The notes below the pieces were generated by a model. That model searched no databases and had not been told where the DNA came from. It saw only the letters and a list, made by a program, of their open reading frames with translations. Of a DNA stretch of 56,214 bases, positions 21,388-25,736 are shown piece by piece (within the stretch, counting starts at the first letter, position 1; the number at the start of each line of letters is the position of its first letter). Source of the DNA: Burkholderiales bacterium (lineage in GTDB: Bacteria; Pseudomonadota; Gammaproteobacteria; Burkholderiales; Burkholderiaceae_C); contig JANMSS010000027.1 of NCBI GenBank assembly GCA_031389585.1, positions 1 through 56,214 of the forward strand, in the 5' to 3' direction. The position numbers and the translations under genes are program-made.

Positions 21388-22590
21388 CTATTCGGCGCGC
21401 AACGCGTTGACCGGGTCGAGCAAAGAGGCACGGCGCGCCGGCAAGACACCCGCCACCAGCCCGATCAGCATCGACCCGGCCACGGCCGCCGCCACGAAGG
21501 CCGCTGGCGTATGCACCGGCAGGCCGGGCAGCACCAGCGTCAACAGCTGCGCAGTGCCCGCGCCCACCAGCACGCCGAGCGTCCCTCCAAGCGCCGAGAG
21601 CACGACGGCCTCGGCCAGGAACAGCGCCAGCACCGAGCTGCGCCGCGCCCCCAGGGCCATCAGCAGGCCGATTTCGGCGGTGCGTTCGGTCACGGCGATG
21701 GTCATGATGGTGACGATGCCCACGCCGCCGACCAACAGCGAAATGCTGCCCAGCGCGCCCACGGCCAGGGTCAGAATGTCCAGGATGTTCGACAGCGTGC
21801 GCAACATGTCCTCTTGCGTCACCACGGTGAAATCCTCCCTGCCGTGGCGCGCCGAGAGGATCGACTTGACTCCCGCGACCACGCCGGCCGCAGCCAGGTT
21901 CTCGCGGTAGATGACGTTGATCTCCTGCAGGCTGGGGCGGTTGAACAGCTCGAGCGCGCGCGTCGCCGGAATGTAGGCCGTATCGTCGATGTCGATGCCC
22001 AGGAACTGGCCGCGTGACTCGAGCACGCCGATCACGCGCATCTGCTCACCGCCGATCCGCACCCGCTGGCCCAGCGGATTGGCGGTGCCGAAGAGTTCGT
22101 GTCTCAAGGTCGAGCCGAGGACGACAAAGGAGCGTGCGCCGTCGCTGTCGTCGGTCGGTAGGAACTGGCCCGCCCGCACCTGCATGCGAAACGCGGCCAC
22201 GAAGTCGGTGGTGGTGCCGAACACGGTGGTGCGCCGCACGCGCCCTTCGGCGGCGATCTCGGCGTTGCCGGCGACCATCGGCACCACGCCGACCAGTCCG
22301 GGCATGCGCGCCAGGGCCCGCGCATCGTCCAACGTCAAGGGGCGCACCGAGGACGGAAAGCCGGGATTGATGCCACCGGTGCTGGTCTTGCCGGGCGTGA
22401 CCTTGATGACATGGGTGCCGAACTGCGAGAACTCGGCCAGCACGAAGCGGTGCAGACCCTCGCCGATCGAGCTGAGCAGGATCACCGCGGCGATGCCGAC
22501 CGCGATCCCGAGCAGAGTGAGGAAGCTACGCAGGCGCCCGGCGATCAGCGATCGCAGCGCGAGATTGACGGTGTCCGGCCAGCGCAGCAT
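21388..22590 (-). CDS. ABC transporter permease, MacB/LolC-like (FtsX domain), permease B
   Basis: N-terminal TM (LRSFLTLLGIAVGIAAVI), a large periplasmic domain, and three C-terminal TM segments with the FtsX signature (TERTAEIGLLMALGARR). It is a paralog of the upstream permease. Confidence 0.8.
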   Translation of the reverse strand: MLRWPDTVNLALRSLIAGRLRSFLTLLGIAVGIAAVILLSSIGEGLHRFVLAEFSQFGTHVIKVTPGKTSTGGINPGFPSSVRPLTLDDARALARMPGLVGVVPMVAGNAEIAAEGRVRRTTVFGTTTDFVAAFRMQVRAGQFLPTDDSDGARSFVVLGSTLRHELFGTANPLGQRVRIGGEQMRVIGVLESRGQFLGIDIDDTAYIPATRALELFNRPSLQEINVIYRENLAAAGVVAGVKSILSARHGREDFTVVTQEDMLRTLSNILDILTLAVGALGSISLLVGGVGIVTIMTIAVTERTAEIGLLMALGARRSSVLALFLAEAVVLSALGGTLGVLVGAGTAQLLTLVLPGLPVHTPAAFVAAAVAGSMLIGLVAGVLPARRASLLDPVNALRAE

Positions 22591-22606
22591 CGATCGCAGC
22601 TCCGCT

Positions 22607-23818: not shown

Positions 23819-24573
23819 ATCGGCCCGGAGTCAGCCCCCGGCTGGACCCGATCTTCGCGGATGGCCCCATCTTCGAGCATCAGACAGCGCCGTGCCCGCT
23901 GGCCCAGGCGCGCATCGTGGGTCACCATGACCAGGGTGACGCCGCGCTCGCGGTTGAGTGTCTCGAGCAGGTGGATGACCTCGTCACCGGTGGCGCGGTC
24001 GAGATTGCCGGTCGGCTCGTCAGCCAGCATCAGCGCCGGTGTCATCACCGTGGCCCGGGCGATCGCCACGCGCTGGCGCTGGCCACCCGAGAGTTCGCCC
24101 GGCCGATGCTCGGCGCGTGGCGTGAGACCGAACTCGGCCAGGGCGCGGACCACGCGCTGCCCGCGCTCGGCCGGATCCATGCCCGCCAAGACCATCGGCA
24201 GTTCGATGTTCTGGGCTGCGGTCAGCCTGGGCACCAGATGAAAGGTCTGGAACACGAAGCCGATCCGTCGGCTGCGCACGGCCGCCTGCTCGTCAGGCGA
24301 CAAGGTCGTGACGTCGCGCCCTTCGAGCAGGTAGCTGCCGGCATTGGGCGCGTCAAGCAGGCCGAGCACATTGAGCAGGGTCGACTTGCCTGAGCCTGAG
24401 GGACCCATCACGGCCATGTACTCGCCGGCCGTGACGCGCAGATCCACCTTGCGCAGGGCGTGGATCTGGCTGTCGCCCAGCGTGAACACGCGATCGATGC
24501 CGCGCAATTCGACCTGCGCGGCGATCGCCGCGGAAGCCGTCGCCGCAGGCGGTATCGACATGTTCAGGCTCAC
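23815..24573 (-). CDS. ABC transporter ATP-binding protein, MacB/LolD-like
   Basis: Walker A GPSGSGKST, Q-loop, signature LSGGQRQRVAIARA, Walker B LMLADEPTGNLD and H-loop VTHD. The GTG at 24573 overlaps the adaptor stop (GTGA). An ATG alternative lies at 24561. Confidence 0.85.
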   Translation of the reverse strand: MSLNMSIPPAATASAAIAAQVELRGIDRVFTLGDSQIHALRKVDLRVTAGEYMAVMGPSGSGKSTLLNVLGLLDAPNAGSYLLEGRDVTTLSPDEQAAVRSRRIGFVFQTFHLVPRLTAAQNIELPMVLAGMDPAERGQRVVRALAEFGLTPRAEHRPGELSGGQRQRVAIARATVMTPALMLADEPTGNLDRATGDEVIHLLETLNRERGVTLVMVTHDARLGQRARRCLMLEDGAIREDRVQPGADSGPM

Positions 24574-25736
24574 TTGGCGACAGCGGGATCTGCGATCGCG
24601 CGCACGCTGGCCTTGACGCCTTCGCGCTCGAGCGAGGTCACGATGCGCTCGCCCCCGCTCAGGCCTTCGATGACCTCAGTGTGCTGCCAGTTGCTCAGCC
24701 CGGTCTTGAGCTTGCGCTCGACCAGCCTGCCACCGTCAAGCAGCAGCACCCGCGAGCTTTCGAGCAGCGCGGCAGTGGGTACGCGCAGGACACTATCGCG
24801 CACTTCGAGAATGACTTCGGTGTCGGCGCTGTAGCCCACCAGCAGCGGGCCGGCCTGGGCGGGATCGTCGAAGGTGGCTTCGATGTCCACCGTGCGCGCC
24901 TGCTTCTCCAGGGCGCTGACATAGGGCGCGATGCGCTTGATGCGGCCAGCAAAGCTGCGCCCGGGCAGCGCGTCGATCGTGATCCGCACTGGCATCCCCG
25001 TCTTCAGGCGCGGCGCATCGACCTCGTCCAGCGGCGCCTTCACGTACAGACAGGAGTCGTCGATCAGGTCGATCGCCGGCGGTGTCGGCACGCCCGGGGG
25101 CGAGGGTGTGGAGTACTCGCCGACCTCGCCGACGATGCGGGCGATCGTGCCGGCGAAAGGCGCCACCAGGACCATGCGGCGCTGCTCGATGCGCGTCAAT
25201 GCCAGCCGCGCCTGCGACTGTGTCACGTCAGCATGGGCGGTCTCGCAGGCCGCCGCCCTCACGCTGGCCTCGCTGCGTGCCGCGTCCTCGCGCGCGATCG
25301 AGACAAACTCCTGCAGGCGCAATGCGCTCTGGCGCACAGCCTCGCGCGCGGCGGCAGCGGCCATCGTGCAAGCCTCGGCCTCGCGCTTGCGTGCCGTGTC
25401 GACAATCGCAGCGGCGACCACCTGCTGGCCCTGCTGATCGTCGTCCCACAGCTTCATCAGCAGCTGGCCCTTGCGCACCCTGTCGCCCTCTTTCACCGCG
25501 AGCAACTCGATGCGGCCGCCAGCCATGGTCGACAGACGGGTGCGCTGGCAGGCCTCGACAGTGCCGGCCCTCGTGTTGGCAATCGTGGCTTCGACCTTGC
25601 CGCGGCCGACCTCGGCCACCACCACAAGCACCGGCGTGGGCCGAGTCAGCCACGCAAGGGCAGCCACCGCTGCGGCGATCAGCAGCAGCGCGATCAGGCT
25701 GCGGCGCAGCCAGGGACGTTGGGTTTTGGGGGTCAT
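24570..25736 (-). CDS. HlyD/MacA-family periplasmic adaptor subunit
   Basis: N-terminal TM anchor (LIALLLIAAAVAALAWL), a lipoyl/barrel-sandwich motif (GGRIELLAVKEGDRVRKGQLLMKL), a coiled-coil hairpin and a beta-barrel C-terminus. The ATG at 25736 overlaps the ispD stop (ATGA). Confidence 0.8.
   Translation of the reverse strand: MTPKTQRPWLRRSLIALLLIAAAVAALAWLTRPTPVLVVVAEVGRGKVEATIANTRAGTVEACQRTRLSTMAGGRIELLAVKEGDRVRKGQLLMKLWDDDQQGQQVVAAAIVDTARKREAEACTMAAAAAREAVRQSALRLQEFVSIAREDAARSEASVRAAACETAHADVTQSQARLALTRIEQRRMVLVAPFAGTIARIVGEVGEYSTPSPPGVPTPPAIDLIDDSCLYVKAPLDEVDAPRLKTGMPVRITIDALPGRSFAGRIKRIAPYVSALEKQARTVDIEATFDDPAQAGPLLVGYSADTEVILEVRDSVLRVPTAALLESSRVLLLDGGRLVERKLKTGLSNWQHTEVIEGLSGGERIVTSLEREGVKASVRAIADPAVAK

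Follow-up and report, generated by a model that had tools for sequence, protein, structure and literature searches.

Tripartite pumps of the MacB type, which belong to the ATP-binding cassette (ABC) transporters, take their substrates from the periplasm, and the mechanism moves no cytoplasmic solutes across the inner membrane. Arrangements in which the nucleotide-binding domain (NBD) is split off, or in which the permease is a heterodimer, are known variants of the MacB fold (PMC5985334). VarACDEF from Vibrio cholerae (VC1563, VC1565-1568) is a characterized tripartite ABC pump that exports macrolides (PMC5595328). The present analysis concerns a four-gene export module of this general kind that lies between ispD and ispF, two genes of the methylerythritol phosphate (MEP) pathway, in a Burkholderiales bacterium (GenBank assembly GCA_031389585.1, contig JANMSS010000027.1, positions 1 to 56,214). 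The whole stretch of 56,214 nt is referred to as the window, and loci from other genomes and contigs carry numbers with the prefix L.

The explanation that we favour, with reasonable rather than high confidence, is that a portable MacAB-type pump was inserted between ispF and an ispD gene that was already fused to a bleomycin-binding-protein-like (Ble-like) domain with a vicinal oxygen chelate (VOC) fold. The pump would ride on the transcription of ispD, ispF would have a promoter of its own, and there would be no link between the pump and the MEP pathway. The pump itself is of a known kind; its embedding in the ispD-ispF operon is a new context that is conserved in a small clade.

Organization of the locus and identity of the pump

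Six tightly packed open reading frames (ORFs) on the minus strand (20863-26806) encode IspD, a periplasmic adaptor, an ABC ATPase, permease A, permease B and IspF. Pfam and NCBIfam annotate them in this order as IspD, HlyD/RND-type adaptor, ABC_tran, two MacB_PCD plus FtsX proteins and IspF/YgbB (Table 1). The stop codon of the IspD fusion overlaps the ATG of the adaptor in an ATGA at 25736-25733, and the adaptor TGA overlaps the GTG of the ATPase gene in a GTGA at 24573-24570; an ATG at about 24561, 9 nt 3' of this GTG, is an equally possible start. At 23818-23815 the ATPase TGA in turn shares bases with the GTG/ATG that starts permease A. Permease B follows after a gap of 16 nt containing GGAG, and a further 30 nt (21358-21387) lead to the ispF ATG at 21357. 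An earlier reading made from the letters alone (the sequence-only reading) had described this order with its coordinates, overlaps and 16-nt and 30-nt gaps, and all of these are read directly in the sequence. The gene order is not an assembly artefact, as it recurs in the independent assemblies L001, L081-L084 and L094-L098; these assemblies and the Pfam and NCBIfam identities bear out that ispD and ispF enclose a complete export module. On the far side of ispD the mfd gene diverges, with its ATG at 26835, and a gene for a RisS/EnvZ-like histidine kinase (HK) is convergent with ispF. The window belongs to the core chromosome, with spoT, dnaG, rpoD and dnaK present, and no Rfam family matches 20000-27500 at E<=1.

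Table 1. Coordinates of the genes, domains and conserved motifs of the ispD-ispF region in the window
Feature	Position	Strand	Basis
Catalytic domain of IspD (residues 1-238 of 357 in the fusion)	26093..26806	-	PF01128, TIGR00453, predicted fold
Ble-like VOC-fold domain, C-terminal, in frame with IspD	25733..26092	-	NCBIfam and PDB matches, predicted fold
MacA-like periplasmic adaptor (membrane fusion protein)	24570..25736	-	TIGR01730, MacA 5nik, transmembrane helix 13-31
Stand-alone ABC ATPase, MacB-NBD/LolD-like	23815..24573	-	PF00005, intact motifs
Permease A, MacB-type, without NBD	22607..23818	-	MacB_PCD 3.7e-44, FtsX 1.1e-17
Permease B, MacB-type, paralogue of permease A	21388..22590	-	MacB_PCD 1.1e-41, FtsX 8.1e-17
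Invariant CCCGTACACTGC, putative ispF -10 element	21364..21375	-	Conservation across lineages
ispF (MEcPP synthase)	20863..21357	-	PF02542 3.8e-64; TIGR00151 197.6 bits against cut-off 116
Invariant palindrome GATTCTAGAATC, mfd/ispD intergenic region	26814..26825	both	Conservation; candidate overlapping divergent -10 boxes

The adaptor scores 161 bits against TIGR01730 (cut-off 94.9) and matches the MacA structures 5nik (5.4e-23) and 9qgy, the pair at 5e-23 to 5e-24, over residues 9-371 of 388. A single transmembrane (TM) helix is found at its N-terminus. The ATPase is a separate protein of 252 aa (PF00005, 4.8e-33) with intact motifs, namely GPSGSGKS at 57 (Walker A), the LSGGQ signature at 161, LMLADEP at 181 (Walker B) and VTH at 217 (H-loop). 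In both permeases the MacB_PCD (PF12704) and FtsX (PF02687) matches lie above the gathering scores, and each protein has four hydrophobic TM-like segments, a periplasmic loop of about 235 aa and no NBD. Both permeases, which are 41% identical to one another, therefore combine the MacB periplasmic core domain, lying between TM1 and TM2, with a C-terminal three-TM bundle of the FtsX type, which makes four TM helices in total. Permease B aligns with the MacB structures 5gko (5.1e-58) and 5nik (9.5e-57), and the Spr0695 permease of Streptococcus pneumoniae is also matched. Against PRK10535, the MacB equivalog, the individual pieces reach 198-230 bits where the cut-off is 966. As this cut-off is missed and the NBD is a separate protein, the pump is MacB-like rather than an orthologue of MacB. 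The operon encodes one adaptor and one ATPase together with two distinct MacB-type permeases that lack an NBD, which is the architecture of the VarACDEF type.

Two different permeases with a separate ATPase are also found in LolCDE, and the ATPase reaches 225 bits against the LolD model, which would suit a misplaced housekeeping system, either LolCDE for the release of lipoproteins or a glycolipid exporter of the DevBCA type. Such an identity is extremely improbable. The scores fall far short of every Lol and Dev equivalog cut-off (lolCE 59 and 31 against 362 bits, LolD 225 against 308, DevB 60 against 129, DevC 23 against 290 and DevA 195 against 296), the permeases match MacB far better, and the module includes a membrane-fusion adaptor, a component that Lol systems do not have. 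The classification by profile HMMs that the sequence-only reading had proposed thus yields MacB-type permeases and a MacA-like adaptor, with the Lol and Dev models unmatched.

Homologues of permease B are abundant: 7,995 of 8,000 scored candidates lie at E<=1e-20, and the best 120 are 65-100% identical. Stand-alone operons with the order adaptor, ATPase, permease, permease (68-75% identity) occur in three unrelated neighbourhoods (L090, L092 and L093), and no gene for an outer-membrane factor (OMF) is adjacent to them. From these comparisons the pump is best described as a common, portable Burkholderiales operon of the MacAB type with VarDEF-type architecture. The module had been called atypical, a view that does not hold, as the four-gene unit is common in Burkholderiales and VarACDEF has the same set of subunits (PMC5595328).

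As the sequence-only reading had observed, no OMF gene adjoins the module, and the ten largest of the remaining ORFs in the window include no OEP or TolC protein. This counts against the outer-membrane partner that the favoured explanation assumes. The E. coli macAB operon is likewise unlinked to tolC, the gene for its outer-membrane duct, so the missing neighbour is not unusual. In the proposed complex, permeases A and B would form a heterodimer driven by a dimer of the ATPase, and a hexamer of the MacA-like adaptor would bridge the permeases to an unlinked TolC-like duct. A pump of this type (type VII ABC) would most likely expel toxic compounds from the periplasm or outer leaflet, such as antibiotics and peptides, by MacB 'mechanotransmission' (PMC5985334).

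Transcription of the pump and of ispF

The intergenic region between mfd and ispD is only 28 nt long (26807-26834) and holds an invariant 12-nt palindrome, GATTCTAGAATC. Either strand of the palindrome reads TAGAAT, at a distance of 8 nt from the ispD ATG and of 10 nt from the mfd ATG, and the palindrome is identical in the window, in L081, L082 and L094-L096, and in the pump-less loci L002 and L004. It looks like a pair of overlapping divergent -10 boxes, which makes it a candidate for the production of leaderless or near-leaderless mRNAs, and it is probably the promoter of the ispD-pump transcript. A scan of 20500-27200 for two-hexamer promoters gave no site, and the four terminator-like sites are no excess over shuffled sequences (2.3 +/- 1.6). 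The module thus has no recognizable promoter or terminator of its own, in support of the sequence-only reading. As the ATGA stop/start overlaps are conserved in relatives and the module carries no promoter or terminator signal, the pump would most simply be co-transcribed and translationally coupled with the fused ispD gene. The pump would have lost its own promoter, or never have had one, and would be transcribed from the TAGAAT element of ispD; the overlapping codons would couple its translation, and its expression would be steady, constitutive and at a housekeeping level.

Within the 30-nt spacer before ispF, the 5' part cannot be aligned between relatives and the 12-mer CCCGTACACTGC is invariant in six lineages. 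This 12-mer contains the hexamer TACACT (21371-21366), whose end is 8 nt away from the ispF ATG, and a Shine-Dalgarno (SD) sequence is lacking. A Pribnow box located 6-8 nt from the start codon, in the place of an SD sequence, is the signature of leaderless genes (PMC6028130), and in Burkholderia cenocepacia leaderless transcripts have been mapped that have a TA-rich motif instead of an SD sequence (PMC4603805). At the sequence level ispF presents both features, a -10-like box 8 nt upstream and no SD sequence, and both are conserved.

For a comparison across 71 loci, a -10-like hexamer was defined as having A at position 2, T at position 6 and a match at four or more of the six positions, and as ending 5-9 nt before the ispF ATG. 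All four pump-clade loci carry such a hexamer and none of them has an SD-like motif. Where ispF is separated from ispD, the hexamer is present in 11 of 23 loci, and none of these 11 has an SD sequence; where ispD abuts ispF, it is present in none of 44 loci, and an SD-like motif is found in 29. The hexamers of the 11 separated loci are GACAAT, GAGAAT, CACAAT or GATACT and lie 6-7 nt before the ATG. These loci include all of those in which a divergent patatin-like gene lies upstream of ispF (see below), and there ispF must have its own promoter because its upstream neighbour points the other way. From this comparison it would appear that ispF changes from SD-coupled to leaderless whenever ispD is not next to it. 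In the window, 6 of the 42 predicted gene starts show the same -10-like geometry, as compared with 1.7% of all ATGs (binomial P=8e-5), which suggests that leaderless transcription is common in this organism. Besides ispD and ispF, the starts at 31121, 35811 (minus strand), 40428 (dnaG) and 45844 carry TAGACT, GATAAT, TAGACT and GACAAT, respectively, 6-9 nt upstream.

The sequence-only reading had held that the region leaves no space for promoters, so that ispF expression must pass through the whole module, and it had named in advance a promoter in the 30-nt gap as the observation that would speak against this. An obligatory read-through does not follow from the spacer, in which the invariant 12-mer places TACACT at 8 nt from the ATG and an SD sequence is lacking. 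As for the promoter in the gap, its leaderless-type geometry is conserved, and several points weigh against it. A conserved -35 or an extended -10 element was looked for in the spacer and not found, the two-hexamer scan is negative here also, TACACT matches the -10 consensus at just four of six positions, and a spacing of 8 nt is near the upper limit for leaderless genes. Instead of a promoter element, the 12-mer could be an operator or a translation element.

If ispF had no promoter of its own, it would be expressed only by read-through from ispD, and the 12-mer would act in translation initiation or regulation on a polycistronic mRNA. The shortness of the spacer, the lack of a conserved -35, the empty consensus scan, the chance level of terminators and the tight packing of co-directional genes all fit such a transcript. 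It would leave unexplained why an SD sequence is absent before ispF in all pump-clade loci when 29 of the 44 abutting loci have one, and why a -10-like hexamer stands at a spacing typical of leaderless genes, in the same design as where ispF must be transcribed alone. Exclusive read-through is consequently regarded as possible but rather unlikely. A minimal, leaderless-type promoter for ispF is the better supported reading and is considered probable, with some reserve. In this mechanism ispF would have acquired the -10 element TACACT, most likely giving a leaderless mRNA, and would be expressed additionally, or mainly, from its own leaderless promoter without depending on read-through. In the literature searched, no prior description was found of the palindromic divergent -10 pair or of the switch of ispF from SD-led to leaderless. 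Together with the IspD-Ble-like fusion described below, these two are side results, yet more unusual than the pump itself.

The fused ispD gene, the proposed insertion and other occupants of the junction

From its start codon, the ATG at 26806, the ispD gene codes for 357 aa, of which residues ~239-357 form an extra domain. The IspD domain named in the sequence-only reading is present (PF01128, 1.1e-57; TIGR00453, 204 bits against a cut-off of 181); the gene is not a plain ispD, the Ble-like domain having been missed. As the ORF is a fusion, it is the fusion protein that ends at the 'ispD stop' (25733). The extra domain matches the NCBIfam models ble_MBL (2.9e-10) and BLMT (6.3e-10) over their full length, both far under the cut-offs (40 against 250 bits for Ble-MBL, 39 against 210 for BLMT), and BLMA (26 against 140) and ZbmA (21 against 280) are also missed. 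Its best sequence match in the PDB is the Tn5 BLMT (1ecs, 1ewj and 1mh6; ~4-6e-10) over the whole domain, with ZbmA and BLMA weaker. By these matches the domain is classed as a BLMT homologue over its full length that lies outside the curated Ble families, and drug binding by it is only putative. An AlphaFold model of the fusion (34 homologues, pLDDT 88.8) predicts the IspD fold followed by two beta-alpha-beta-beta-beta units (pLDDT 86-98), and superimposing the IspD part on B. thailandensis IspD (4zdq) gives a TM-score of 0.88 (target-normalised).

IspD fusions of similar length (~330-400 aa) top the list of homologues, with more than 100 protein clusters that include Ideonella, Rivibacter and many metagenome-assembled genomes. 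Stand-alone Ble-like homologues of ~125 aa are common as well (706 representatives at E<=1e-3). Given how many clusters carry the fusion and how common the stand-alone proteins are, a small Ble-like gene was joined to ispD long before the arrival of the pump. The Ble domain was also considered as a part of the pump cassette, and this was rejected because the fusion has a far wider distribution than the pump. No relevant description of IspD-Ble fusions was found in the literature searched. Near the stand-alone pump operon of L092 (11240-13295) lie genes for a TetR regulator, an MFS transporter and a Glyoxalase/VOC protein; this echoes the pairing of VOC domain and pump and is probably coincidental.

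Species-representative genomes scanned with IspF gave 80 loci, and metagenome contigs were added separately. Among the 80 loci only L001 has the pump between ispD and ispF (79-87% aa identity). In L002, L003, L004 and L014, whose Mfd and HK are 90-92% and 91-93% identical to those of the window, ispD abuts ispF, and there is neither a pump nor a Ble domain. The metagenome contigs L081-L084 and L094-L098 are syntenic with the window: mfd diverges from ispD-VOC, which is followed by the adaptor, ATPase, permease A, permease B and ispF genes, and then by convergent genes for HK and a response regulator. With the window and L001 included, the pump occupies this place in at least six distinct lineages. 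That L002-L004 and L014 abut, and that other ispD-VOC lineages have ispF directly next or other cargo, points to the pump as an insertion and not the ancestral state. The sequence-only reading had suggested such a synteny comparison as a way to date the insertion. Dating by dS was abandoned, as dS is saturated at ~0.5-0.7 even for distant relatives owing to the extreme GC3, and dN and trees were used in its place.

The pump genes are under purifying selection, as their dN/dS is 0.12-0.23, similar to that of ispD and ispF. In GC content, GC3 and a CAI-like index the module deviates by no more than 1 SD from the genes of the window, so the proposed check of GC3 and codon usage finds it indistinguishable from its flanks. 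Foreign composition was accordingly rejected, there being no sign of a recent transfer in these measures. The search for flanking repeats or att-like sites produced just short repeats at chance level and the paralogy of the two permease genes; CCATGACC, which the two junctions of the window share, does not recur as a conserved sequence in relatives. In L081 (10234-10993) two ORFs of 181 and 88 aa take the place of a single ATPase gene, owing either to a frameshift (pump decay) or to an error of long-read assembly.

On the favoured explanation the operon was inserted in one genus-level group of Sphaerotilaceae-like Burkholderiales. The Mfd tree groups the window with L081 and L082 in 100 of 100 replicates. 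The HK tree places the pump-bearing L001 among the pump-less L002 and L004, and monophyly of the pump loci is recovered in 1 of 100 replicates. Two observations weigh against the explanation in its simplest form. The first is this patchy presence, for which one gain and vertical descent is too simple; within a genus-level group it implies loss, or homologous-recombination exchange through the conserved flanks, besides descent. The second is that in L001 the 135 nt 5' of the adaptor (1-135, at the contig end) are not VOC-like; the TGA of the upstream ORF still overlaps the adaptor ATG.

The distance between ispD and ispF is <=300 nt in 50 of 72 loci, so that an mfd-divergent ispD-ispF arrangement is the usual one in relatives, as the sequence-only reading had stated for Burkholderiales. 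Counting a junction as occupied above 300 nt, the ispD/ispF junction is occupied in 22 of 72 loci, mfd/ispD in 4 of 51 and ispF/HK in 19 of 65. Among the ispD-VOC lineages, L089 and L009 have no cargo, the start of ispF directly overlapping the fusion gene. Rivibacter subsaxonicus (L087/L088, 8062-8643) has a 193-aa GNAT protein (Acetyltransf_3) between ispD-VOC and ispF, its gene overlapping the stop that precedes it by 1 nt and the start of ispF by 8 nt. The junction in L085 (8086-14860) and L086 holds, co-directionally, a 47-aa ORF, a TIR_2 protein, an AAA_5 ATPase and two FGE-sulfatase proteins (1115 and 273 aa). This cluster may be an undescribed defence-like system; its PADLOC matches are weak (ThsB-like TIR, 1e-5).

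Behind a plain ispD, the cargo includes a ParE toxin (L015), a Phd/zeta toxin-antitoxin pair with an ammonium transporter (L067 and L074), a 1241-aa ABC exporter (L065) and 125-aa ORFs without known identity (L077 and L078). In 14 loci of the Roseateles/Pelomonas type (L006, L023-L026, L042, L044, L045, L048, L052, L054, L061, L062 and L072) an opposite-strand gene for a patatin-like phospholipase (~740-870 aa) adjoins ispF, the two start codons being ~40-60 nt apart. Variable extra genes lie between the patatin gene and ispD and encode, for example, a methyl-accepting chemotaxis protein, an S41 peptidase, a Ser/Thr kinase or a binding protein. One of these loci, L045 (Roseateles oligotrophus CHU3), has two copies of ispF (10001-10474 and 15599-16072) that are 5.6 kb apart and 77% and 75% identical to the window IspF.

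The ispD/ispF junction is thus clearly permissive, with about eight or more independent types of cargo. To call it uniquely hot would go too far, and this wording was toned down: the ispF/HK junction is occupied about as often, and 14 of the 22 occupied loci share the patatin gene of one lineage. A reading of the junction as a defence island was also rejected, since the PADLOC matches are weak or partial (TIR-like at 1e-5, a patatin effector at 1e-9 to 1e-12 and a mad3-like ABC protein) and since the chemotaxis protein, peptidase, kinase and binding protein are plainly not defence genes. No integrase, transposase or flanking repeats were seen. A bolder reading, which we regard as unlikely, is that the junction is a recurrent 'cargo slot' in a housekeeping operon. 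Promoter-less genes would repeatedly have landed there without a visible recombinase or repeats, co-directional cargo being translationally welded to ispD and ispF escaping by a leaderless promoter. The examples would be the Ble-like protein, by now a part of IspD, the MacAB-type pump, the GNAT, the TIR/AAA/FGE-sulfatase cluster and the toxin-antitoxin pairs. If true, this would be an integron-like expression of accessory genes from an essential promoter, without an integrase.

The same loci bear on what the pump does. The Ble-like domain and the pump might be one resistance unit, in which a natural product that is bleomycin-like or directed at IspD would be bound by the domain and then expelled by the pump, the Rivibacter GNAT being an alternative, inactivating arm. 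The self-resistance pair of bleomycin producers consists of a binding protein and an acetyltransferase. The closest solved relatives of the domain are the drug-sequestering BLMT, ZbmA and BLMA, the start of the pump is translationally coupled to the stop of the domain, and a GNAT follows the same domain in L087. Such a unit is nevertheless improbable given the much wider spread of the fusion, the stand-alone pump operons without an adjacent Ble-like gene and the TIR cluster, which follows the same domain and is unrelated to drug resistance. Moreover, Ble proteins are cytoplasmic and pumps of the MacB type take periplasmic substrates (PMC5985334).

The sequence-only reading had also raised a tie of export to the MEP pathway, for which the pump might export 2-C-methyl-D-erythritol 2,4-cyclodiphosphate (MEcPP), another intermediate or an isoprenoid-derived lipid. 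The position of the pump inside the operon would agree with this, as would the efflux of MEcPP that is reported for engineered E. coli (PMC3487848). The closest relatives are pump-less, homologous pumps occur in contexts unrelated to the MEP pathway, the same junction elsewhere holds unrelated cargo, and the MacB mechanism moves no cytoplasmic solutes (PMC5985334), which together make the tie very improbable. It is mainly the heterogeneity of the cargo that leads us to conclude against a functional link. On pumps in ispDF operons nothing relevant was found in the literature searched. The favoured explanation, then, is that the position of the pump would be opportunistic and reflect the tolerance of the junction for cargo, not a connection with isoprenoids.

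Real as the arrangement is, it is fairly ordinary and represents one among the many cargo states of the permissive junction, and knowledge of MacAB-type pumps and of the MEP pathway is left unchanged. Its interest is that accessory genes can split an essential operon of two genes, which is usually seen as inseparable and is often even fused as IspDF, and the suggestion that the downstream essential gene may stay safe through a minimal leaderless promoter. It also offers a concrete case of an efflux pump that would be expressed from a housekeeping promoter and not under a dedicated regulator, and it flags a widespread, undescribed IspD-Ble-like fusion protein.

Comparison with known systems

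The Ble-like domain (119 aa) is homologous over its full length to the Tn5 BLMT (1ecs and 1ewj; 4e-10) and shares its two-module VOC fold, but it sits on the C-terminus of an essential enzyme and scores ~40 bits where the family cut-offs are 210-250. The bifunctional IspDF of other proteobacteria similarly has an extra domain C-terminal to IspD, encoded at the usual place of ispF; in the window this domain is Ble-like and IspF is encoded by a separate gene 4.4 kb downstream.

The closest solved structures to the pump are those of MacAB-TolC from E. coli and A. baumannii (5nik and 5gko), with matches of 5e-58 to 1e-56 for the permease and 5e-23 to 5e-24 for the adaptor. MacB is a homodimer with an N-terminally fused NBD, whereas the pump of the window has a separate NBD and two paralogous permeases. 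Spr0693-0694-0695 from S. pneumoniae (5xu0 and 5xu1) is a MacAB-like system that has an adaptor and in which ATPase and permease are separate polypeptides; its permease is matched at 3e-36. It differs in being Gram-positive, in having one type of permease (a homodimer) and in having no outer-membrane partner. LolCDE resembles the proposed complex in its heterodimer of two MacB-fold permeases and its separate ATPase dimer, but passes lipoproteins to LolA with neither an adaptor nor an outer-membrane duct, and its NCBIfam models are not matched here. The likeness to VarACDEF is one of architecture, both having one adaptor, two different NBD-less permeases (four TM segments and a large periplasmic domain) and one separate ATPase (PMC5595328). 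The var cluster has another gene order, encodes the OMF VarC and is linked to a LysR regulator and a metallo-beta-lactamase, whereas the module of the window carries no OMF or regulator gene and is embedded between ispD and ispF.

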